From a bacterium (lineage in GTDB: Bacteria > Acidobacteriota > Blastocatellia > HR10): a stretch of 12,342 bases of DNA. Positions 1-11,893 of this stretch are shown here, piece by piece (position 1 is the first letter of the stretch; every line of letters starts with the position of its first letter). The stretch lies in the NCBI GenBank assembly GCA_041640655.1, contig JBEPZV010000064.1:1-12342 (forward strand). Direction: 5' to 3'. Made by a program: the position numbers and the translations under genes. The notes beneath the pieces are model-generated. The model had not been told where the DNA came from, ran no database searches, and saw only the letters and a program-made list of their open reading frames with translations.

Positions 1-149
1 GTCAGCTCATGGCCGATCTGCAGCAGGTCGCGCATCAGATCGCGGCGATCGCCTATGGGCAGGCGACCTCGGCAGGAGCGGGGACGTCGGGCCGATCCGA
101 TGGTGGATCGGATGATGTGATTGATGCCGAGTTCAAACCCAGTCATTGA
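1..149 (+). CDS. dnaK: Molecular chaperone DnaK (Hsp70), C-terminal end; gene starts upstream of the window
   Basis: Not in the ORF track. The frame from position 3 reads QLMADLQQVAHQIAAIAYGQATSAGAGTSGRSDGGSDDVIDAEFKPSH-stop (TGA 147-149). This is a lid helix ending in AY, a G/S-rich linker and the DDVIDAEF tail motif typical of DnaK. The dnaJ/clpB context agrees. Confidence 0.9.
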   Translation, partial: QLMADLQQVAHQIAAIAYGQATSAGAGTSGRSDGGSDDVIDAEFKPSH

Positions 150-152
150 GAC

Positions 153-177
153 CCACGTGATTCGCCGAGTCGCGTGG
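153..177 (+). other. RNA stem-loop immediately after the dnaK stop (no U-tract)
   Basis: CCACGTGATTC (153-163) pairs with GAGTCGCGTGG (167-177): 11 pairs including two G-U wobbles, loop GCC. The mismatches are G-U compatible on the + strand transcript. Confidence 0.6.
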
Positions 178-202
178 AACACCGCGGAGGTGAACATATC
201 CT

Positions 203-694
203 ATGCCACGTCGAAAGAAGACACAGATGGAGGAGCCGGTTCTTCCCCCGTCGGAGGAGCCGGCTTCGGCGTACGAGGAATCGGTCGAAGCTTATGATGA
301 GGTCCTGGAGGAGGACTACTACGACGAGGACTTCGCCGTAGAAGAAGAGGCGGTGGACGTCGCCGAGGAGGAAGCCGAAGTCGAGGAGGAGCCGGTGGCC
401 GAGGCGGTGTCGGAGCCGGAGGAGGAAGTGGTCGAGCCGGTCTCTCCTCGGTATGAGACGCGCCAGGAGATGTTGGCTCGGCTCATGCGGCGGCTCCTGA
501 CCGCGCGCGAGCGGGTGCGGGCGACGCTGGAGCGCGTGCGCGACATCAATGCGCAACTTCGGGACGCTGGGCCTCGCCCGTCCGATCGCTTGAAGGAGCA
601 GTATCAGCGGGCGCTCGCAGAGTTGAGCGCTGCACGGCGGGAGGAGAATCTCGCGCGGGCTGAGCTCATTCAGGCGCTCAACTGGCGGGGGTGA
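203..694 (+). CDS. Hypothetical protein, 163 aa: acidic low-complexity N-half plus predicted helical hairpin/coiled coil
   Basis: Strong SD GGAGGTGA at 186-193 before ATG 203. It fills the gap between dnaK and dnaJ on the operon strand. Residues 10-82 contain 32 D/E and no K/R. Residues 83-163 form two long amphipathic R/L/A/E-rich segments separated by GPRPS. Confidence 0.85.
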   Translation: MPRRKKTQMEEPVLPPSEEPASAYEESVEAYDEVLEEDYYDEDFAVEEEAVDVAEEEAEVEEEPVAEAVSEPEEEVVEPVSPRYETRQEMLARLMRRLLTARERVRATLERVRDINAQLRDAGPRPSDRLKEQYQRALAELSAARREENLARAELIQALNWRG

Positions 695-773
695 TGCGGC
701 TCCCGTCGCGAGCGCGCTCTCCAAGGCGCGAGCAGATCCCCATGCGTGAGGTCATCGGCGCGCGAAGCGAGCT

Positions 774-1703
774 ATGGCGGTCAAGTACAAAGACTACTAC
801 GAGATCTTGGGTGTCCCCCGGACGGCCACCCAGGAGGAGATCAAAGCGGCCTTTCGCCGGTTGGCCCGGAAGTATCACCCGGATCTGAATCCGGGGGACA
901 AGCAGGCTGAGGAGAAATTCAAGGAGATCAACGAGGCGTATGAAGTTCTGGGGGATCCCAAGAAACGTGAGTTGTACGATCGGCTGGGGCCGAATTGGAA
1001 GGCGGGTGCAGACTTCACGCCGCCGCCCGATTGGGAGAAGATCCGCATTGATTTCGGCGATTTCGACTTCTTCACGGGCGGGCCGGGGACCTTCAGCGAC
1101 TTCTTCGAGATGCTCTTTGGCGGGTTGCGTGGGCGGACGGCCTCACGTCGTTCGGCGACGGGCACGCGGGTGGGATGGGGCGTTCGGGGGGCCGATGTTG
1201 AGTCCGAGCTGACGCTCACGTTAGAGGAGGCGCATCGAGGGACGACGCGTCGCGTCACGCTGCCCAATGGGCGGACGGTGGAGGTGAAGATCCCGGCCGG
1301 CGTGCGCGAGGGGTCGGTGATTCGGCTCGCTGGACAGGGAGAGCCGGGCATGGGGGGGCCTCCGGGTGATCTCTATCTGAAGGTACGGGTGCAGAAGCAC
1401 CCGATCTTTACGGTCTCCGGCGATGACGTTTACGTCGAGGTGCCGATCACGCCGTGGGAGGCCGTCCTCGGGGGGAAGATTCAGGTCCCCACGTTGGACG
1501 GCATGGTCGAGGTGACGCTCCCACCGGGCTCGCAGAGCGGGCAGAAGCTGCGATTGCGCGGTCAGGGACTGAATCGTCGGCGCGGCGGACGCGGCGATCA
1601 GTACGTGCAGCTTCGGATCGTCGTCCCCACCAATCCGACGCCCGCCGAGCGACGCTTGTTCGAGCAATTGGCGCGCGAATCGAGTTTCAACCCGCGGCGA
1701 TGA
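774..1703 (+). CDS. cbpA: Class B J-domain co-chaperone (DnaJ/CbpA-like, no zinc finger)
   Basis: J domain KDYYEILGV...KYHPDLN...[14 protein letters not shown] region with [11 protein letters not shown], no CxxCxGxG repeats, and a C-terminal domain with GDLYL, PWEAVLG and GDQYV. Confidence 0.92.
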
Positions 1704-1742
1704 GTCGCGCGCGAGGAGATCGCTGCTGAAGGGAGGGGGATT

Positions 1743-4385
1743 ATGGATGTCAATCGGTTGACGGAAAAGGTGCAAGAGGCTGTGCGAGCTGCGCAGAGTC
1801 TGGCGGCGCGCTACAGCCATCAGCAGATCGATGTCGAACATCTGCTCCTTGCGCTGCTGCAGCAAGAGGGGGGATTGGCATCGGCGATCTTGGAGAAGGC
1901 GGGGGTGGATCCGAAGCTCGTCCGCGCTCGCCTGGAGCAGGAGCTGGCGCGCTGGCCCAAAGTGAGCGGTCCGGCGGCTGGTCCCGATTACGTGTACATC
2001 ACGGGGCGCCTCAACCGTCTCTTCACCGTGGCCGAGGATGAAGCCGCGCGGCTCAAGGACGAGTACATCAGCGTCGAGCACATCCTGCTCGCGATCCTGG
2101 AAGAAGGGCGCAGCGGAGCCGCCGGACGCATCCTGCTCGATCTGGGGCTGGATCGGGATCGGGTGATGAAGGCGCTGCAGCAGATTCGCGGCACGCAGCG
2201 GGTGACGAGCCCCACGCCCGAGGCCACCTATCAAGCGCTCGAGCGGTATGGGCGCGATCTGACGAAGCTCGCCGCTCAGGGGAAGCTCGATCCGGTCATC
2301 GGGCGCGATGAGGAGATCCGGCGCGTGATGCAAGTCCTCTCGCGTCGGACGAAGAACAATCCGGTGTTGATCGGGGAGCCGGGCGTCGGTAAGACGGCCA
2401 TCGTCGAGGGGCTCGCGCAGCGGATCGTGAGGGGCGATGTCCCCGAGGGGTTGAAGAACAAGCGTGTCATTCAACTGGACATGGGCGCGCTCATCGCGGG
2501 GGCGAAATACCGGGGCGAATTCGAGGAGCGCTTGAAGGCCGTGCTCCGCGAGGTCCAGGAGTCGCAGGGCGAGATCATCCTCTTCATTGATGAGTTGCAC
2601 ACGGTCGTGGGGGCCGGACGCGCCGAGGGGGCGACCATGGATGCGAGCAATCTCCTGAAGCCGATGCTCGCGCGCGGCGAGTTGCGGTGCATCGGGGCGA
2701 CGACCCTCGACGAATATCGCAAGTACATCGAGAAGGACGCCGCGCTCGAACGCCGCTTCCAGCCGATCCTGGTCGGCGAGCCCTCAGTCGAGGACACGAT
2801 CTCGATCCTGCGGGGATTGAAGGAGCGGTACGAGGTGCATCATGGGGTGCGCATCAAGGATTCGGCCTTGGTGGCGGCGGCGATGCTCAGTCATCGCTAC
2901 ATCTCGGATCGCTTCCTGCCGGACAAGGCCATTGATCTTGTGGACGAGGCGGCGGCGCGGCTGCGGACCGAGATTGATTCGATGCCCTCGGAATTGGATG
3001 AGATTCTGCGACGGATCATGCAGCTGGAGATCGAGCGCGAGGGCTTGAAGCGCGAGACCGATCCGGCTTCGCGCGAGCGGTTGCGGAAGATCGAGGATGA
3101 GCTGGCCGAGCTGCGCGTGCGGGCGGATCGGCTCCGCGCGCAGTGGGAGGAGGAGAAGCAGATCCTGGCCCGCTCGCGCGAGCTGCGGGAGCAGATCGAG
3201 CAGACGAAGATCCTCATCGAACAGGCCGAGCGCGCGTATGACCTCAACCGCGCGGCCGAGCTGCGCTATGGGCGCCTGGTCGAGCTGGAGAAGCAGATGC
3301 GAGAGCAGGAGGCGAAGCTCGCCGACTTGGCGGCGCGGCATGGCGGCACGCGCTTGCTCAAGGAAGAGGTGGACGAGGAAGATATCGCTGAGGTCGTGAG
3401 CCGCTGGACGGGCATCCCCGTGAGCCGCTTGCTGGAGGGGGAGATTCAGAAGCTGCTGCGCTTGGAGGAGGAGCTGCATCGTCGCGTCGTCGGTCAGGAG
3501 GAGGCTGTGCGCGCGGTCGCCGAAGCCGTCCGCCGCGCGCGCGCGGGATTGAAAGACCCGAATCGTCCGATCGGGAGCTTCATCTTCCTCGGCCCCACGG
3601 GTGTGGGGAAGACGGAGCTGGCCCGCGCGCTCGCCGAGTGCCTCTTCGATGACGAGCGCGCGCTGATTCGGATTGATATGTCCGAGTACATGGAGAAGCA
3701 CTCGGTGGCCCGCCTGATCGGCGCGCCGCCCGGATACGTCGGATACGAGGAGGGGGGGCAACTGACGGAGGCCGTGCGGCGTCGCCCCTATTCGGTCATC
3801 CTCTTCGATGAGCTGGAGAAGGCGCATTGGGATGTCTTCAACCTCCTGCTGCAGATCCTCGACGACGGGCGGCTGACCGACAGTCATGGCCGGACGGTGG
3901 ACTTCAAGAACACGATCATCATCATGACGTCGAACGTCGGGAGCCATCTGATCCTGGAGCATCGGGGGGGGACGGGAGAGAGCTACGAGCGCATGAAGGA
4001 CGCCGTGCTCGCCGAGTTGCGGCGGACGTTCCGGCCGGAATTCCTGAACCGCGTGGATGAGATCGTCGTCTTCCATGCACTGACCGAGGAGCATCTGGCG
4101 CGTATTGTGGAGATTCAGATCGGGCGGCTTCGAGAGCGGTTGCGCGATCGGCAGATCGAACTGGAGCTGACCGAGCGGGCGAAAGCGCGTCTGGCCGAGT
4201 GGGGCTATGATCCGGTCTTCGGCGCGCGGCCGCTCAAGCGGGTGATCCAGCGGGAGGTGGAGACGCCGCTGGCGAAATTGATCCTGCAAGGGGAGGTGCG
4301 AGATAATTCCCTCGTGATTGTGGATGAGGAGGGCGGCCGGCTCACCTTCGCCGTGCAGCCGAAGGAGGTGCCGGTGACCTCGTGA
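1743..4385 (+). CDS. clpB: ATP-dependent disaggregase ClpB
   Basis: Clp N-domain; NBD1 with Walker A GEPGVGKT, pore loop [13 protein letters not shown] and Walker B LFIDE; long coiled-coil M domain with AAELRYG; NBD2 with GPTGVGKT and [16 protein letters not shown]. No IGF/LGF ClpP-docking loop. SD GGGAGGGGGA at 1731-1740. Confidence 0.97.
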
Positions 4386-4412
4386 ACCTTCGCTCTCAGG
4401 AGGGGGAGAGAG

Positions 4413-5942
4413 ATGAACGCGATCAGGCGTACCATCGGCCCCAGACTTCGCGAGCGCCTCGGGAGGATCGGTGGGGCGATCGCACTCGTGCTCCTCGGCG
4501 TGCTCGCCGGATCGGCGATCACGGCGCGCACGGATTGGTCGCCTTTCCCCGGCAGGGAGAATGCGACGCGGGTTCCCATCTATCTGGCCACGGGGACGCC
4601 CGTCAGTGGGAACATCTCGCTCCTTGAGGGGTTGGCTCCGATCGTGCGCGCGGCGCGCGAGTGGGTGGTGACGATCGAGACGAAGATCCCGGATCGCGCA
4701 GGGTTTGACATCTTCGACGATCCGTTCTTTCGCTGGTTCTTCGGACGGCCTCAAGTCCCGCGGCGAGAGCAATACCGTCAGGGGCTCGGTTCGGGCGTGA
4801 TCGTGAGTCCGGACGGATACATCCTGACCAATCATCACGTCGTCGAGAATGCGAGCGAGCTCAACGTGAGGCTCTTCGATGGACGCCAATTCCGGGGGCG
4901 CGTCATTGGGACCGATCCGAAGACCGATGTGGCCGTGGTGAAGATCGAGGCGACGAAGCTGCCGGCGGCCGTCTTTGGGGATTCCTCCCGCGTGCAGGCG
5001 GGAGATTTCGTCATCGCGATCGGGAGTCCGTTCAGCGCCCAGCTTCAGCATACGGTGACCTTTGGGATCGTGAGCGCGACCGGGCGGGGGAGTCTCGGTA
5101 TCGCCGACTACGGGGACTTCATCCAGACGGACGCCGCCATCAATCCCGGCAATTCCGGCGGGCCGCTGGTGAACATGCGCGGGGAATTGATCGGCATCAA
5201 CACGGCGATCTTCACGCGCGGCGCGCCGGCCAATGCGGGCGTGGGCTTCGCCATTCCCATCAACATGGCGCGCGAGGTGATGGATCGCATCCTGAAGTAT
5301 GGGCGGGTCGTGCGCGGGTACCTGGGGGTGAACATCCAGACGCTCGATGAAGCGATGGCCGAAGTCTACGGGGTGAAGGGACGTCGGGGGGCGATCGTGC
5401 TCGAGGTCGTGCCCGACAGCCCGGCCGACCGCGCCGGTCTGCGACGCGATGACATCATCATCGAATATAACGGGCAGAAGGTCACCGGGAGCGAGCAGTT
5501 GCGAAACATGGTGGCACTGACGGCGCCCGGGACGCGCGCGACGCTCAAGGTCCTGCGCGACGGACGCGAGCACACGCTCACGGTCGAGGTGGGGGAGTTG
5601 AAGGAAGAGCGAGCGGGCACGCGATGGGGAGGAGAGTCCGAGCGCGGGATGACGCTGGGCGGCCTCGAGGTGCAGGAGCTGACGCCGGCATTGCAGCGAC
5701 GCTATGACCTCCCGCGTCAGATCACGGGCGTGCTCATCGTGGATGTGGCCGACGGGAGCCCGGCGGCGGAGGCGGGCCTGATGCCCGGGGATGTGATCCA
5801 GGAGATCAATCGCCAACCGATCCGAAGTGTCGCCGATTTCCGCCGTATGGTCGCCGAGGTCGGGCGGCGCCGCGCGGTCCTGCGCGTCTACAGTCAGCGT
5901 CAGGGCGGGAGTCTGCTCATCGTCCTCGAACCGCGAGGATGA
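4413..5942 (+). CDS. degP: DegP/DegQ (HtrA, Do-family) serine endoprotease with two PDZ domains
   Basis: Basic N-terminus followed by a hydrophobic signal/anchor segment (IGGAIALVLLGVLAGSAITA). Catalytic triad motifs TNHHV, DPKTDVAV and QTDAAINPGNSGG. PDZ motifs RGYLGV, SPADRAGL and SPAAEAGL..GDVI. Confidence 0.95.
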   Translation: MNAIRRTIGPRLRERLGRIGGAIALVLLGVLAGSAITARTDWSPFPGRENATRVPIYLATGTPVSGNISLLEGLAPIVRAAREWVVTIETKIPDRAGFDIFDDPFFRWFFGRPQVPRREQYRQGLGSGVIVSPDGYILTNHHVVENASELNVRLFDGRQFRGRVIGTDPKTDVAVVKIEATKLPAAVFGDSSRVQAGDFVIAIGSPFSAQLQHTVTFGIVSATGRGSLGIADYGDFIQTDAAINPGNSGGPLVNMRGELIGINTAIFTRGAPANAGVGFAIPINMAREVMDRILKYGRVVRGYLGVNIQTLDEAMAEVYGVKGRRGAIVLEVVPDSPADRAGLRRDDIIIEYNGQKVTGSEQLRNMVALTAPGTRATLKVLRDGREHTLTVEVGELKEERAGTRWGGESERGMTLGGLEVQELTPALQRRYDLPRQITGVLIVDVADGSPAAEAGLMPGDVIQEINRQPIRSVADFRRMVAEVGRRRAVLRVYSQRQGGSLLIVLEPRG

Positions 5943-5971
5943 GCGATCTCCTCTGTCGGGAGGGAGCGGCG

Positions 5972-6271
5972 ATGGCGACCTACTACATCCTGCGCAAGGC
6001 CAATGGTGAGGTCTTCACGCTCGAGGTGAACGGCGTCTCGTACGTCGCCCTGTGGGCGGACGAGCGCGATGTGCGCCGCAGCAAGAGCGCGAATCCCGAC
6101 TTGATGGTCTACATCCCGGCGCCTGCAGATGAGCGCTTCCTCAAGCGGCGGTTCGGCGATCGTCCGATCCGGTTCTTCCTCGTGGACGGTCGGGATCCGG
6201 ATCTGCGGACCGGGCGCGAGATCACGCCGGAAGACGTCTTCGGGGAGGCGGTGCTTCCGAAGGCGGCCTGA
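5972..6271 (+). CDS. Hypothetical protein, ~99 aa (alternative start at 5939 overlapping the degP stop gives 110 aa)
   Basis: SD GGGAGGGAG at 5958-5966 before ATG 5972. Globular-looking beta/alpha sequence (MATYYILRKANGEVFTLEVNGVSYVALWADERDV...). It fills the degP-ftsH gap on the operon strand. Confidence 0.8.
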   Translation: MATYYILRKANGEVFTLEVNGVSYVALWADERDVRRSKSANPDLMVYIPAPADERFLKRRFGDRPIRFFLVDGRDPDLRTGREITPEDVFGEAVLPKAA

Positions 6272-6273
6272 CC

Positions 6274-6297
6274 GCGCTCCGTGCGTGAGCGGAGCGT
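6274..6297 (+). other. RNA stem-loop between the small gene and ftsH (no U-tract)
   Basis: CGCTCCG (6275-6281) pairs perfectly with CGGAGCG (6290-6296), extended by a G-U pair at each end; loop GCGTGA. Confidence 0.5.
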
Positions 6298-6326
6298 TCG
6301 AGGGCGAAGCTCTGGAGGAGGCGAGT

Positions 6327-8180
6327 ATGGATCAGCTCACCAGGCGCAGGTGGGTCTTCAGCGGCCTTTATTTGCTCTTCATGGTGGGGGTCTTGTTTTC
6401 CCTCCACCAGTATGCGCGCGTGAGGCCGCAGCACATCCCGTACAGCGAATTCCTCGAAGCCCTTCGGGGAGGCAAGGTCGCGGAAGTATGGATCAGCGAG
6501 AGTGAGATTCGCGCGCGCCTCTCCGAGGATGGGCGAATCGTCGTCGCCACGCGCGTGCCGGGGATCGAGGAGACGGCGTTGCTCAAAGAGCTGCAGGAGC
6601 GTCGGGTGAAATTCTCCGGCGTGATCGAGCGCATGTCGTGGTGGGAGCAGCTCTTCCTCTGGTGGATCTTGCCGCTTCTCATCTTGGGCGCCCTCTGGGG
6701 CTATGGGATGCGTCGTCTGGCCCAGGGAGGGGGTGGGGCCCTCACCTTCGGCCGCAGCAAGGCGAAGATCTACGATACGAGCAGCGAGAATCGGGTGACC
6801 TTCGCCGATGTCGCGGGCGTGGATGAGGCGAAGGCGGAGCTCATGGAGATCGTGGATTTCCTGAAGAACCCGTCGCGGTATCAGCGCCTCGGGGGACGCA
6901 TCCCGAAGGGCGTCTTGCTCATCGGGCCGCCGGGGACGGGCAAGACGTTGCTGGCGCGCGCGGTGGCGGGCGAAGCGGGCGTGCCGTTCTTCGCCATCTC
7001 GGGATCGGAATTCGTGGAGATGTTCGTGGGCGTCGGCGCGGCGCGCGTGCGCGACCTCTTCGAGCAGGCGAAGCGCCGGGCCCCGTGCATCGTCTTCATT
7101 GATGAGCTGGATGCCATCGGGAAGATGCGGGCCGTCGGCGGCGGACTCGTCGGCGCGCACGATGAGCGCGAGCAGACGCTCAATCAACTGCTCGTGGAGA
7201 TGGATGGATTCGATTCGTCCAAGGGCGTGATCATCATGGCAGCGACCAATCGGCCGGAGATCCTCGATCCGGCGCTGCTGCGGGCCGGGCGCTTCGATCG
7301 GCGGATCGTCGTGGACAAGCCCGACCTGAAGGGGCGCGAGGAGATCTTGCGCGTGCATGCGCGGAAGATTCGTCTGGCCCCGGACGTGGACTTGCGCGTC
7401 ATCGCCGCGCGGACACCGGGGATGGTCGGCGCCGATCTCGCCAATATCGTGAATGAGGCGGCGCTTTTGGCCGCGCGGCGCGGAGCCGAAGCCGTCGAGA
7501 TGCGCGATTTCGACGACGCCATTGATCGCGTCCTGCTCGGGTTGGAGAAGAAAGGGCGGATCATGTCGCCCGAGGAGAAAGAGCGAGTGGCGTATCATGA
7601 AGTCGGGCATGCGCTCTGCGCCCTCTCGGTGCCGCATGCCGATCCCGTGCATAAGGTCACGATCATCCCGCGCACGATTGGGGCGCTCGGCGCCACATTG
7701 CAACTGCCGACGGAGGACCGATATTTGCTCACGAAGCCGCAATTGGAGGATCGCCTGGTCGTGCTGCTGGGAGGGCGCGCGGCTGAGGAGTTGATCTTCG
7801 GGGAGATCTCCACGGGCGCGCACAATGATTTGGAGCAGGCGACCGAGATCGCGCGCCAGATGGTCATGCGCTTCGGCATGAGCGAGCGCTTGGGGCCGTT
7901 GACGTATGGTCGTCCGTGGTCGGGGCAGTTCCTGCAGGGCGCGCTCCCCGCTTATGAGGAGCGGAATTTCAGCGAGCAGACGGCGCGCGCGATTGACGAG
8001 GAGGTGCAACGCGTGGTGACCGACGCCTATCAGCGCGCGCGGAGGGTTTTGCAAGAGAAGCAGGCGGCGTTGCGCCATGTGGCGCGGGAGCTGATCAAGC
8101 GCGAGACGTTGGATCGCGAGGAATTGGAGCAGTTGGTGCGTGAGGGGATGGCCATCGCCGCTCCCGCGCCGGTCGAGTGA
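6327..8180 (+). CDS. ftsH: ATP-dependent zinc metalloprotease FtsH (~617 aa)
   Basis: Start moved from 6129 to ATG 6327 (SD GGAGGAGG at 6314-6321). Two TM segments, Walker A GPPGTGKT, pore motif FVEMFVG, Walker [30 protein letters not shown], zinc motif HEVGH and GGRAAEE. Confidence 0.96.
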
Positions 8181-8190
8181 GGTCGAGTCA

Positions 8191-8217
8191 TCTCGGGCGA
8201 AGATCTCTCGCCCGAGG
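8191..8217 (+). other. Inverted repeat/stem-loop after ftsH (no U-tract)
   Basis: CTCGGGCGA (8192-8200) and TCGCCCGAG (8208-8216) form a perfect 9-bp inverted repeat with a 7-nt loop. Confidence 0.65.
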
Positions 8218-8238
8218 GGAGGGGGAGCGAGGTGCGCT

Positions 8239-9618
8239 ATGCGATCGGCCGTGATCTTCGCCGGAGTTTCGCCGCATCCTCCGATCATCATCCCGGAGGT
8301 CGGGGGCCGACACGTGAAGGACGTCGAGGCGACGGTGCGTGGCGTTGAGCAGATGATGCAGCGTTTGGTCGCATCGCGGCCGGATGTCGTGGTCATCATC
8401 AGCCCGCATGCGCCGCTCGATCCTCAGAGTTTCAGCGCCTACAGTGGCCCTCGGCTGCGCGGGGACTTGTGGGATTTCGGCGCGCCGCAGGTCGAATTCG
8501 ATGTCCCGAATCACGTGGTGCTGCTGTCGCGCCTGGTTGCCGTGGCGCACGAGCGTGGATTGCCGATGTGGCTCGTGCCAGCCGGACGCCGATTGGATCA
8601 TGGCACGATGGTCCCGCTCTACTATTTGCTCAAAGCGGGATGGCGGTCGAGCGTCTTGGTCGTGGGCTTATCGTTGCGCCCGTTTGAGGACCACATGCGC
8701 TTTGGCGAGTGCTTGGCCGAAGCGGCCGAGCAGCTGGGCCTGCGCGTGGCGCTCTGCGCCAGCGGTGACATGAGCCACCGATTGAAGCCCGGAGCTCCGG
8801 CCGGGTATCATCCTGAAGCGCATCGGTACGATGAGGCGATCGTCGAGGCGATTCGCGCGGGCGATTTCGAGCGCATCCTGCGGATTGATCCCGATCTGCG
8901 CGAGGAAGCGGGCGAGGACATCTATCGGTCGCTTCTGATCGCCTACGGCGCTTTGGGGCGCACGCTCCATCGCCCGGAGGTCTTCTCCTACGAGGGGCCG
9001 TTCGGCGTCGGGTACATGGCGGCCATCCTCGCCGATTATTCGACAGGGGATGGACCGGGTGAGCGCGTGGGTGAGGCGGAGTTGCCCGCGCTCGCGCGGC
9101 GCGCGGTCGAGGCCTACGTGAAGGAGAAGCGCGTGCTTGATCCCCCGCTGCACCTTCAGGGGGTGGCGGCCGAGCGCGCTGGGGTCTTCGTCAGCATCAA
9201 GACGCGCCAGGGGCACTTGCGGGGATGCATCGGGACCATCGAGCCGGTCCATGAGAACGTCGCCCGCGAGGTCATTCACAACGCCATCGCCGCGGCCACG
9301 CGGGATCCGCGGTTTGACCCGGTGCGCGAGGAGGAGCTGGAGGATTTGGTGTTCTCGGTGGACATCCTCTCACCGCCGGAGCCGGTGACGGACCCGAAGG
9401 GGCTGGATCCGAAGCGCTATGGGGTCATTGTGGAGACGGATGATGGGCGGCGCGGACTGTTGTTGCCGGATCTGCCCGGGATCGAGACGGTCGAGGAGCA
9501 GCTCCGTTACGCGCGGATGAAGGCGGGGATCCGACCGGATGAGCCCGCTCGGATCTCGCGCTTCACCGTTCGACGGATTCGGGAGGGTGGGCGCGCGGTG
9601 GTGGGGAGTGAGGAATGA
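8239..9618 (+). CDS. Fused MEMO1/LigB-like domain + AMMECR1 domain protein (AmmeMemoRadiSam protein B+A type), ~459 aa
   Basis: Start moved to ATG 8239 (SD GAGGT at 8229-8233). N-domain motifs PHPP, IISPH, LDHG, SGDMSH and [11 protein letters not shown]-domain motifs GVFVS, LRGCIG (9217-9234), DPRF, SVDILS, and GLLLPDL, which are AMMECR1 signatures. Confidence 0.9.
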
Positions 9619-10784
9619 TCGTGCATCTTCAGCTCGGAGGGACGCCTATGGTCTCATACGAGGACATCGAGATGCTGAAGGCCTATGTGCCGCAGGGCGA
9701 TGGATGGGTGTTGAGCCTGTATCTGGATGTGGATCAATCGAAGGCGAGCAATCTGAAGCGCGGCTTCGAGACGGTGGTGCATAATCTGTTGCGAGACGTC
9801 GAGCGCGGGGTGGATGAGCGGGCGCGCGAGGAGTTCGAGCTGAATCGCGCGCGCCTGTTGCGCTTCCTTCGCAGTTACGAGCCGAGGAAGAAGAGCCTGG
9901 TCGTCTTCTGCGACGCTCGACATGATTTCTGGTGGGACCGCGATCTGCCGGTCTCCATGCCGAGCGTGGCGCGCTTTGAGAACGCCCCGTATCTTCGACC
10001 GCTCATCGAGGCCCTCGATGAATATGAGCGCTACGGCGTCGTCCTCATGGACAAGGAGAAGGCGCGCTTCTTCACCGTGTATATGGGTGAGATCCAGGAA
10101 CACGAGGCCGTCTTCGATGAGGTGCCGCGCCGCACGGTGACGACGAGCATGGATCGGCTGTGGTCGCAGAAGAACCTGCAGCGGCATCACGATGCGCATG
10201 TGCATTGGCATGCTGTGCATGTGGCCGAGCGTTTGCGGGAGTTGGTGGAGCGGTATCGTTTCGATCGGCTCATCGTCGGGGGGACGGTGGAGGCCGTGGG
10301 CGAGTTGATGCGCGTCTTGCCCAAGCGCTTGAGCGAGCGCGTCGCGGGCACGATCTCTCTCCCCGTCACGGCACCCCCTCAGGATGTCCTGGCCGAGGTG
10401 ATTCGCATCGAAGAGCAGGTCGAGCGCCAGGCCGAGCTGCAGATGGTGGAAGCTCTGCTGACGGCCGCCGCCAAAGGGGATCGCGCCGTCGTCGGTCCGA
10501 CGGCGACGTTGGAGGCGCTCAATGAAGGGCGGGTCTGGCGGCTCGTCTATGCGGGCCAGTGTACGCTCACGGGCTCGGCCTGCGCGCAGTGCGGCGCGCT
10601 CTTCTGGGAGCCGCAGCGCGCGACCTGTTGGTATTGCGGGGGGACTTTGGAAGCTGTCCCCGGCTTCCTCAATCGCGTCTTGGAGCGCGTGCTCGTGCTG
10701 GGCGGCAGTGTGGAAGAGGTGCGGGGACCGGCAGCGGAGCGATTAGAAGCCGCCGGGGGGATCGGGGCCTTCTTACGCTATTGA
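9615..10784 (+). CDS. Bacterial archaeo-eukaryotic release factor homologue (baeRF1 / aRF1-pelota-like, three domains with zinc ribbon); alternative start at 9648
   Basis: N-domain VLSLYL; PYLRPL linker; RNase-H-like middle domain [14 protein letters not shown]...VP...WSQ..LQR...LIVGG; L7Ae-like C-domain [17 protein letters not shown] with CxxC...CxxC; C-terminal GGIGAFLRY, as in aRF1/pelota. ATG 9615 overlaps the upstream stop (ATGA); ATG 9648 has SD GGAGG at 9636-9640. Confidence 0.88.
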
Positions 10785-10802
10785 TCAAGGGGGAGAGGGG
10801 TG

Positions 10803-11552
10803 ATGGCTGAGGAGACCATAGACGTTTTGGCCGTTGGCGCTCATCCCGATGATGTGGAGTTGGCGATGGGCGGGACACTGCTTAAGCTGGCGTCCTTGGG
10901 ATATCGCACGGGCATTCTGGATATGACGCGCGGAGAGGCCGGGACGCGCGGGACGCCCGAGGAGCGGGCGCGCGAAGCCCGCGAGGCGGCGCGCCTTCTG
11001 CGCGTCGTCGTGCGCGAGACGCTCGGGCTGCCCGACAGCCGCGTCCGCTGCGACGAGGAGGCGCGGCGCGCCTTCGTGCGCGTGCTGCGTCGGCTCCGAC
11101 CGAAAGTCGTCTTCACGCACTATTGGGAAGATCCACATCCGGATCACGCGCAGACGAGTCGGATCGTTCGCGAGGCGGTCTTCTTGGCGGGCTTACCGAA
11201 GTATGATCCGGAGACGGGGCATGCGCGGCATCGGCCGAACGCTCTCGCGTATTTCCTCTTCCCGCGCACGCTCCCGCCGAGCTTCATCGTGGACATCACG
11301 GCCTTCGCCGAGGAGAAGCTGCGGGCGATCCGCGCGCATCGTTCGCAACTCTACGATCCCTCGCGTCCGGAGCCGGAGACGCGGATCAGCGCCGAGAGCT
11401 TCCTGCGGCGCGTGGAAGCGCGGCAGCGCTACTACGGGGCGCTCATTGATGTCGAGCATGGGGAAGCCTTCCTCGTGCGCGAGGCGCTGAACGTCGAGGA
11501 TCCCGTGGCGCTGCTCACGCGCTCGATGAACATCTACTCGTACTTCATCTGA
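10803..11552 (+). CDS. bshB1: PIG-L/LmbE-family zinc deacetylase, BshB1-like (bacillithiol biosynthesis GlcNAc-malate deacetylase)
   Basis: Motifs [35 protein letters not shown] and YG..I....GEAF. ATG 10803 (or GTG 10800) follows a G-rich SD. Family is secure; exact substrate is inferred. Confidence 0.82.
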
Positions 11553-11566
11553 GCGAGGGGGGACGT

Positions 11567-11893
11567 ATGGCGGCGGAATATTGTGTGGGACTCATCACGA
11601 CGGGCAGTCGGGAAGAGGCGGAGCGCATCGCGGAAGCGCTCGTCCATCAGCGCCTGGCGGCGTGCGTCACGCTGGTGCCCGAGGTCGCGTCCGTGTACTG
11701 GTGGGAGGGGCGGGTCGTGCGAGATCGCGAGGCGCTGCTCCTGGTGAAGACGAGTCGAGCGAAGTGGCCGGCGCTCATGGCCGCCGTCCGGGAGTGGCAC
11801 AGCTATCAAGTTCCGGAGATCATCGCTCTCCCCATCGTGGAGGGATCGGCGAGCTATCTGCAGTGGCTCGAGCAATCCCTCGCCGAATCTTGA
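11567..11893 (+). CDS. cutA: Divalent-cation tolerance protein CutA
   Basis: Motifs A..IA..LV..RLAACV, S.YWWEG, E.LLLVKT, HSYQVPEIIALPI..G...YLQWL. Confidence 0.95.
   Translation: MAAEYCVGLITTGSREEAERIAEALVHQRLAACVTLVPEVASVYWWEGRVVRDREALLLVKTSRAKWPALMAAVREWHSYQVPEIIALPIVEGSASYLQWLEQSLAES

Follow-up and report, generated by a model that had tools for sequence, protein, structure and literature searches.

Bacteria terminate translation with RF1 and RF2, and a homologue of the archaeal and eukaryotic release factors (aeRF1) lying in an array of chaperone and protease genes raises the question of what such a protein does at the bacterial ribosome. The gene is carried by the acidobacterial contig JBEPZV010000064.1 (assembly GCA_041640655.1, Blastocatellia), of which the 12,342 nucleotides (nt) analyzed here are termed the window. 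Profile searches and a predicted structure identify its product as a three-domain aeRF1 homologue of the long-loop subfamily of baeRF-1 family 10, which probably, if with some reserve, acts much as Balon does, in the A site under stress or in hibernation and without catalysis. This reading is favored because of the shared fold, the nearest relative, the loss of GGQ, a disordered loop on the side of the peptidyl-transferase centre (PTC), and the stress gene context. An earlier note, made from the letters of the window alone, had described the protein as unlikely to be a normal terminator and as a candidate for hibernating or rescuing ribosomes in the manner of Balon/baeRF1, a proposal that sequence comparison and modelling support through the family assignment, the likeness to Msmeg1130, the loss of GG and of the catalytic Gln, the selection on the gene, and the stress-related neighbourhoods.

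Pfam baeRF_family10 (PF18854) scored 140.4 bits (cutoff 27.1; E 6.6e-41) and matched residues 125-267 over its full profile (positions 1-143/143), upholding the membership of the aeRF1 superfamily on which the earlier note had staked its reading. Weaker overlapping matches were obtained to other baeRF families and to acVLRF1 (PF18859; 22.4 bits, under the 27.1 cutoff), and the Pfam eRF1_1/2/3 models gave no match to the protein at E<=0.01. The top NCBIfam model was the MSMEG_1130-family ribosome hibernation factor (NF052288), matched at full length with 101.6 bits against a cutoff of 480; further scores were 53.1 for Rv2629 (cutoff 320), 31.8 for aRF1/eRF1 (TIGR03676; cutoff 234.7), and 22.2 for the Psychrobacter Balon family AOC03_06830 (NF052287; cutoff 330). 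A 64-sequence family alignment (A1) was used both as search profile and as input to AlphaFold2 (AF2). Against the PDB, the A1 profile matched Msmeg1130 on the M. smegmatis ribosome (8v9j_z) over residues 4-378 with E 5.3e-28, and eRF1, Pelota (E 2.4e-6), and aRF1 more weakly. The AF2 model had a mean predicted local distance difference test (pLDDT) score of 89.1 and its first Foldseek match in the PDB was again Msmeg1130 (8v9l_z, E 1.8e-25, template modelling score 0.59; 8v9j_z, E 2.2e-24), followed by aRF1 (4af1), the P. urativorans Balon structures 8rdv, 8rdw, and 8rd8 (8rdv_B, E 4.5e-19), and then eRF1, Rv2629, and Pelota, the chains of the last at E 2.5e-10 or worse. Full-length Balon homologues, aRF1, and eRF1 could be aligned to the model over approximately 386-410 columns, in agreement with the full three-domain aRF1/pelota-like architecture proposed from the sequence.

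The open reading frame (ORF) was predicted at 9615-10784 (+) with 389 amino acids (aa), and its translation ended in GGIGAFLRY as the note had read it. The start at 9615 given there is probably not the true one. ATG 9648 is the likelier start, because each of the eight nearest matches (77-98% identity) is 378 aa long and covers 97% of the query, the first residue of all five homologue sequences retrieved aligns with codon 12, and a GGAGG is spaced 7 nt from that ATG. The 11 extra N-terminal residues were left uncovered by all 120 listed homologues, most of which span 97% of the query, and a GAGGA is found only 1 nt from ATG 9615. Residues N46, R49, D180, W183, S184, Q185, H195, and H199 are numbered on the 389-residue translation, and the features of the gene were as follows.

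9648..10784, + strand: probable coding region for the baeRF-1 family 10 protein (378 codons and the stop)
9615..9647, + strand: in-frame 5' extension opening with ATG 9615, which overlaps the stop codon of the gene before it; unlikely to be translated
9636..9640, + strand: Shine-Dalgarno-like GGAGG, 7 nt before ATG 9648, read from the sequence
9648..9986, + strand: N-terminal domain, which in aeRF1 and Balon lies at the decoding centre, from AF2 secondary structure and the Msmeg1130 alignment
9987..10415, + strand: middle domain, RNase-H-like release-factor core, span of the PF18854 match
10122..10184, + strand: loop of interest, without Gly, codons 170-190, 21 residues containing DRLWSQ
10152-10154, + strand: D180, nearly invariant in the 198-sequence comparison
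10161-10163, + strand: W183, at the position of the GGQ Gln in the aRF1 alignment
10164-10166, + strand: S184, nearly invariant in the 198-sequence comparison
10167-10169, + strand: Q185, two residues past W183 in the aRF1 alignment
10185..10211, + strand: His-rich start of the long post-loop helix, HHDAHVHWH, corresponding to the rRNA-facing basic helix of aeRF1
10416..10781, + strand: C-terminal Pelota-like domain ending GGIGAFLRY, from the translation and the profile and fold alignments
10581..10637, + strand: Zn-ribbon insert CxxC-x11-CxxC (C323, C326, C338, C341), from conserved Cys and a weak zf-ChsH2 match

The catalytic loop sets the protein apart from release factors. It was compared in 198 distinct relatives, deduplicated from 121 proteins (window protein and listed homologues) and 80 locus-derived proteins, the latter from one scan of genome contigs in which the best 80 of 534 relative-encoding stretches were kept as loci. 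The family consensus was K-T-[ST]-G-T-D-H-x-x-S-Q, with a loop of 26-27 residues in 191 of the relatives and a single loop Gly in 149; D180 was present in 183, S184 in 190, and Q185 in 154, the last otherwise being E (20), D (13), or H (8). Gly-free loops such as that of the window were found in 42/198 relatives and any GG in only five. The place of the retained Gln was fixed by a second family 10 form, found among more divergent representatives, with a 22-residue loop VPGKHKQGGW[S/A]Q. This sister subfamily keeps VPGKHKQGGWSQ, which aligned gap-free to VPGKHKMGGQSQ of A. pernix aRF1 when a profile built from 29 short-loop family 10 proteins (A2) was matched to that protein (VPGKHKMGGQSQRRYER against consensus vpgkhkqGGwsqaryqR). 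The GGQSQ of aRF1 is thereby matched to the GGWSQ of the short-loop profile and, because this alignment is ungapped, the family 10 Trp stands where the catalytic Gln would be, with the conserved Gln two residues further along. Across the 198 relatives the equivalent of the GGQ Gln was R in 86, W in 46, L in 31, and E in 16, with Q absent from the eight commonest residues. In the window RLWSQ, both Gly of aRF1 are replaced (by R and L), Trp takes the catalytic Gln position, and the loop is four residues longer. The replacement of GG by RL, the kept WSQ, and the longer loop reported from the sequence were thus confirmed against both the short-loop GGWSQ sister (22 versus 26 residues) and aRF1. 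One part of that description needs qualification, namely that the Gln of the kept WSQ is present but lies beyond the GGQ Gln, where Trp is found. By sequence alignment, the retained Gln is not that of GGQ and matches instead the Gln of the VLRF-1 pattern GGxSQ/GxuQ as given in PMC6514570. The loop was predicted disordered in the AF2 model, with pLDDT <50 at residues 162-172 of the 378-residue numbering, and the Balon lasso loop is described in PMC10901736 as likewise poorly ordered without P-site tRNA.

The Gly-less loop is shared by a clade. A FastTree phylogeny of 319 sequences over 357 columns, with the loop columns removed and midpoint rooting that gives no polarity from the tree alone, separated a clade of 55 tips (48 short-loop, three long-loop, and four odd) from the rest (257/264 long-loop) with support of 0.972. 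The window protein fell within a Gly-free clade of 17 (support 0.915) nested in a larger group of some 51 tips whose loops have 26 residues (support 0.96). PF18854 was the best match for 12/12 members tested (8/8 short-loop and 4/4 long-loop), and the short-loop members scored 51-86 bits against the aRF1 model versus 32-44 for the long-loop ones. The loop as the most conserved segment of the protein was rejected, its mean conservation being 0.50 against a protein average of 0.54; D180 and S184 were its only residues among the 35 positions conserved in at least 90% of sequences. Side observations on the short-loop form included P0260, with a literal GGQ in its loop (..KAGGQQAEKNQR) as the sole case among the 319 classified sequences, and an N-terminal zf-HC2 anti-sigma-factor domain in the two short-loop proteins P0155 and P0260. 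N-terminal extensions of 80-105 aa were seen on P0124, P0190, and P0249.

Loss of the canonical catalytic motif could also mark a functionless, decaying relic, a reading that we consider hardly credible. Compared with its five closest loci (L001-L005), the window gene had dN/dS (nonsynonymous to synonymous rate ratio) values of 0.09-0.17, and the 21-codon loop was identical in 4/5 of them despite synonymous changes: L003 and L004 each differed by three synonymous and no non-synonymous changes, and L005 by 6.5 and 1.5, respectively. Because of the low dN/dS and the near-identical loops in the closest loci, the glycine-less long loop is, on this sequence comparison, a clade trait maintained under purifying selection. 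A private decayed allele, one of the outcomes by which the earlier note would have been overturned, was rejected on the Gly-free clade and these values, with close homologues sharing the Gly-less loop. The reading frame is also intact and preceded by a good Shine-Dalgarno sequence, and the family comprises 5955 clusters at E<=1e-3 and 1291 at E<=1e-30 in a library of representatives at 50% identity.

The N-terminal domain bears on whether stop codons are read. It carries a conserved strand VLSLYLDVD, with L33, Y36, L37, and N46 conserved in at least 90% of sequences, and a conserved N46/R49 motif, SNLKR (R49 being R38 in the numbering of the 64-sequence summary). Neither a literal NIKS nor an HP dipeptide was found in the translation of this domain. 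SNLKR as a NIKS remnant was rejected, being placed about eight residues after the first strand with NIKS about 15 residues further on in the aRF1 alignment. A stop-codon-dependent alternative terminator, or a factor that reads stop codons and pauses translation without peptide release, would draw on the retained three-domain architecture, the conserved SNLKR, and the suggestion raised in PMC6514570 that full-length baeRF-1 proteins recognize stops to halt translation. This role is nevertheless very improbable given the absence of NIKS, the different position of SNLKR, the absence of GGQ, and the score of 31.8 bits against 234.7 for the aRF1_eRF1 model.

At the C-terminal end, the four Cys of the Zn ribbon were conserved in 198, 198, 198, and 197 of the 198 sequences. 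The stretch of Msmeg1130 aligned to it is Cys-free, which fits PMC6514570, where many baeRF-1 families are described as having an insert of two strands at this site that may be a Zn ribbon in degenerate form. All four Cys have been lost in about 7-8% of long-loop members (e.g., P0137, P0145, P0146, P0154, P0160, P0171, P0172, P0219, P0230, P0232, and P0255).

The conserved loop residues allow a different role, in which an active rescue factor uses its non-GGQ loop (D180...S184-Q185 with the His-rich helix) to hydrolyse peptidyl-tRNA on heat-stalled ribosomes and the freed chains are passed to ClpB, HtrA, and FtsH, which would be the bacterial counterpart of the final step in eukaryotic ribosome-associated quality control (RQC). 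In PMC6514570, family 10 is singled out for its well-conserved Gln as a possible peptidyl hydrolase, and the Ser-Gln pair represents the 'uQ' part of the VLRF-1 motif GxuQ/GGxSQ. Such a role would also accord with the near-constant loop length, the conservation of D180 and S184 above 90%, the purifying selection on the loop, and the neighbouring proteases and disaggregases. It is considered unlikely, since both Gly are lost in the window protein and 42/198 loops are Gly-free, including the entire clade of 17, and loop Gly is held to provide flexibility for positioning the Gln (PMC6514570). Further points against are the replacement of the Gln by E, D, or H in 41/198 relatives, the W, R, or L found where the GGQ Gln itself aligns, the acVLRF1 score of 22.4 under the 27.1 cutoff, and a nearest solved relative that is a non-catalytic A-site blocker. 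The broader proposal is more doubtful: that the long-loop proteins as a group are active rescue enzymes with a Gly-free site of Asp180, Ser184, Gln185, and the His-rich helix, freeing or cutting the peptidyl-tRNA of ribosomes stalled by heat, feeding an RQC-like ClpB/HtrA/FtsH/Lon pathway and coupled in one clade to a SpoU-type 23S rRNA 2'-O-methyltransferase. If it were true, Gly-free rescue enzymes would replace the universal GGQ chemistry with a different site.

Vms1 and ANKZF1 cut peptidyl-tRNA by means of a Q-containing loop. A nuclease of this kind, which on stalled ribosomes would use Asp, Ser, Gln, and His to cleave P-site tRNA at its CCA end or rRNA close by, might be read from the conservation of D180, S184, Q185, H195, and H199 (H199 in 193/198 sequences), their clustering at the loop-helix junction, and the weak acVLRF1 matches. 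The chance of this is slight. The GxuQ motif is absent, with Leu in place of Gly, the acVLRF1 score is under its cutoff, and no RtcB-type or other RNA-repair neighbour was present among the 266 proximal ORFs surveyed below. The window protein has also kept all three domains, as against the loss of the N domain in acVLRF-1 and of the C-terminal Pelota domain in archaeal VLRF-1 (PMC6514570).

For the Balon-like A-site factor, the following course may be proposed from homology, the predicted model, and analogy. Under heat or proteotoxic stress, the factor would be made together with the products of the DnaJ-ClpB-HtrA-FtsH genes and enter the A site of 70S ribosomes, with its N domain placed in the decoding centre, the PTC entrance taken up by the His/Arg-rich helix and the flexible loop of the middle domain, and the Zn-ribbon-bearing C domain turned to the factor-binding site. 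The ribosome would be held idle and protected, with its peptidyl-tRNA left unhydrolysed. Ribosome binding, the absence of catalysis, co-transcription, and stress induction are each what we infer. Balon and its mycobacterial homologues are described in PMC10901736 as occupying the A site without mRNA contact, lacking NIKS and GGQ, and keeping the PTC inert. The E, D, or H found at the Q185 position in 41/198 relatives is unlike a catalytic Gln. A complex prediction of the middle domain (A1 residues 112-268) with the stand-in bL27 RL27_SOLUE, aimed at a Balon-like bL27 trap, gave scores of 0.00 and 0.01, with the mark set at 0.32, and weighs on neither side. The contact between Balon and EF-Tu is given as some 230 A2 in area and as not stable away from the ribosome (PMC10901736).

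Several observations weigh against an A-site hibernation factor. The window protein scored far under the cutoffs of all three curated NCBIfam equivalog models of hibernation factors used (NF052287, NF052288, and NF052289), as did 12/12 other family 10 proteins tested, and its identity to Msmeg1130 is only 21%. The loop is not drifting, being 26-27 residues in 191/198 relatives with D180, S184, and Q185 kept, and a fixed loop length with a conserved Gln is taken by Burroughs and Aravind (PMC6514570) to mark catalytic families, with family 10 as a possible peptidyl hydrolase. The beta-hairpin/beta-loop of the Balon C domain contacts EF-Tu(GDP) (PMC10901736), and the mode of delivery may differ in a protein with an intact Zn ribbon at what may be the same place. 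No RaiA/HPF gene is found within the window, and matching of CIRCE and HAIR consensus patterns at <=3 mismatches gave 0 matches. Co-transcription would follow solely from short gaps and absent terminator-like sites between the genes. Full-text literature searches found no experimental study of any family 10 member.

The genes surrounding the factor were assigned by Pfam and NCBIfam scans, with bit scores where noted.

774-1703, + strand: DnaJ/CbpA-like
1743-4385, + strand: ClpB
4413-5942, + strand: HtrA/DegP
6129-8180, + strand: FtsH
8140-9618, + strand: fusion of LigB/Memo-like and AMMECR1 (AmmeMemoRadiSam protein A, 132.7 bits, cutoff 99)
10800-11552, + strand: BshB1, bacillithiol biosynthesis deacetylase (258.1 bits, cutoff 182.5)
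11567-11893, + strand: CutA

All genes from 774 to 11893 lie on the + strand with short gaps (14-15 nt before BshB1 and CutA). No terminator-like site was found between the array genes, and neither the sigma-70 scan nor the terminator scan exceeded the expectation from shuffled sequence. The DnaK/ClpB/FtsH cluster that had been read from the sequence stands in part: ClpB and FtsH are present, together with DnaJ and HtrA, but DnaK is absent from the window. With BshB1 and CutA, the array reaches beyond proteostasis into stress from thiols and metals. Two ORFs located 5' of DnaJ, 203-694 (+) and 143-724 (-), matched no Pfam or NCBIfam family, and tblastn found no counterpart of the former in the 80 loci.

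The array is conserved among the closest relatives. The nearest loci came from records with the titles Bacterium HR10 (98%) and HR08 (94%), with metagenome-assembled genomes (MAGs) of Acidobacteriota and Blastocatellia next, and the window synteny including BshB1 and CutA was kept in L001-L005 as far as the contigs extend. The LigB/Memo-like and AMMECR1 fusion was the upstream neighbour in 7/80 loci (L001-L007), with the DnaJ-HtrA-LigB/AMMECR1-baeRF order kept in L006 and L007, and HtrA was found just upstream in six more loci (L010, L011, L013, L042, L045, and L046; four titled Pyrinomonadaceae). A homologue is also carried by Pyrinomonas methylaliphatogenes K22 (L012). For the 75 remaining loci, two ORFs to either side of the family 10 gene were surveyed with the target gene forced and third-codon-position GC (GC3) weighting, giving 266 proximal ORFs, and 150 of the 355 ORFs located >5 kb from the family 10 gene in the same loci were sampled as control. 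The ORF calls were crude and some were mis-called, such as the HtrA of L010, visible only by tblastn. Stress-family ORFs amounted to 34/266 proximal (in 24 loci) versus 5/150 distal, with a Fisher p of 0.0013 that is indicative only, as the family set was chosen after the first results and ORF calling was crude. They comprised Hsp20 (7), DUF308 (6), HtrA (5), Lon (4), Usp (4), BON (3), RaiA (2), and DnaJ, OsmC, and MarC (1 each). RaiA was adjacent in 2/75 loci, directly upstream in L014. These neighbour types largely coincide with those of Balon genes, listed in PMC10901736 as Hsp20, DnaK/DnaJ, HdeD, OsmC/OsmY, RaiA, and MarC.

Other features of these neighbourhoods were recorded in their own right. 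A SpoU-class methyltransferase was encoded directly upstream in 13/75 loci versus 0/150 distal control ORFs (p = 0.0055; L035, L040, L041, L044, L047, L048, L050, L052, L053, L056, L069, L070, and L078). In nine of the 13 (L035, L040, L041, L044, L047, L048, L050, L053, and L078) its ORF ended on the first base of the match, implying a 4-nt stop/start overlap, and its best NCBIfam model was RlmB (23S rRNA Gm2251 methyltransferase) at 87-92 bits, under the cutoff of 160. ECF-type sigma domains lay just upstream in 3/75 loci (L008, L033, and L064). Two genes upstream in L008 (L008:4645-5664), Ribosomal_S30AE (RaiA/HPF) and an ECF sigma domain were combined, either as a fusion or as two ORFs merged in calling. 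The order DUF308 (HdeD-like)-HtrA-family 10-DUF5335 recurred in L013, L036, L042, L045, L046, and neighbours, mostly in records titled Pyrinomonadaceae (L045, Blastocatellia) and with ClpB a few kb upstream in four. Two MAGs, J050 (L006 and L008) and 356-308 (L007 and L009), each held two long-loop paralogues (57% and 50-51% identity to the window protein), one with DnaJ-HtrA-LigB/AMMECR1 and the other near FtsH. The record of L005, titled 'uncultured Clostridia bacterium', agreed with the window and the Acidobacteriota records in the order of all eight genes, at protein identities of 68-94%, and its label may be a binning or classification error.

The family itself is already in Pfam and was discussed in 2019 (PMC6514570) and 2024 (PMC10901736). 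It falls under the wide definition of 'Balon homologue' used in the latter, by three HMMER iterations from Balon and from aRF1, the set of that study numbering 1,898 proteins. The window protein is a typical member of the family. The GGW/long-loop split, the equivalence of the GGQ Gln with Trp, and the SpoU-type methylase link appear not to be stated in the available text of the two papers. Balon-type factors were recognized only in 2024, and family 10 is the bacterial aeRF1 family that had earlier been flagged as possibly still catalytic. The loop split and the non-GGQ Gln sharpen the question of whether its members block, release, or cut. With a function suggested by homology, this thermophile-like acidobacterial protein in a chaperone/protease array is a convenient candidate for assay.

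Among known systems, archaeal aRF1 and eukaryotic eRF1 (TIGR03676; 3agk, 4af1, and 1dt9) share the ancestral fold with the window protein, and the aRF1 loop frame VPGKH..GG.S....R is still recognizable in family 10, with a partly cysteine-bearing insert at the Zn-ribbon site in halobacterial aRF1. They differ from the window protein, which has neither GGQ nor NIKS and scores 31.8 bits against 234.7. Pelota/Dom34 is a poorer match in fold (E 2.5e-10 or worse) and profile (E 2.4e-6) than Balon homologues and aRF1/eRF1. The VLRF-1 clade (Vms1/ANKZF1 and acVLRF1; PF18859, NF041024) shares the Ser-Gln pair of GGxSQ/GxuQ (PMC6514570), but the Gly of GxuQ is Leu in the window RLWSQ, PF18859 remains under its cutoff, and the window protein keeps three domains. 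The short-loop GGW[S/A]Q proteins of family 10 have the same PF18854 match, Zn ribbon, and helix QRHHxxHVxWH, and differ in keeping GG, in an aRF1-length loop of 22 residues versus 26, and in forming a separate clade. Psychrobacter urativorans Balon (8rd8/8rdv/8rdw) is a fold match at E 4.5e-19 to 3.7e-18, and both it and the window protein are bacterial aeRF1 homologues without NIKS or GGQ encoded in stress gene clusters (PMC10901736). The sequence likeness of the two is very weak (22.2 bits against 330; A2 profile E 1.6e-4, N domain only), and the Balon HP motif, lasso loop, bL27 trap, and beta-hairpin were not located in the window protein. Msmeg1130 (8v9j/8v9l) differs in its 21% identity, its 101.6 bits far under the family cutoff of 480, a loop of different length without the D...SQ motif, and a Cys-free C-domain insert versus the Zn ribbon of the window protein. 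It nonetheless represents the best profile and fold match, with the same three-domain layout, no GGQ, and a C terminus (..AAGVAAVLRW) similar to the GGIGAFLRY end of the window protein.

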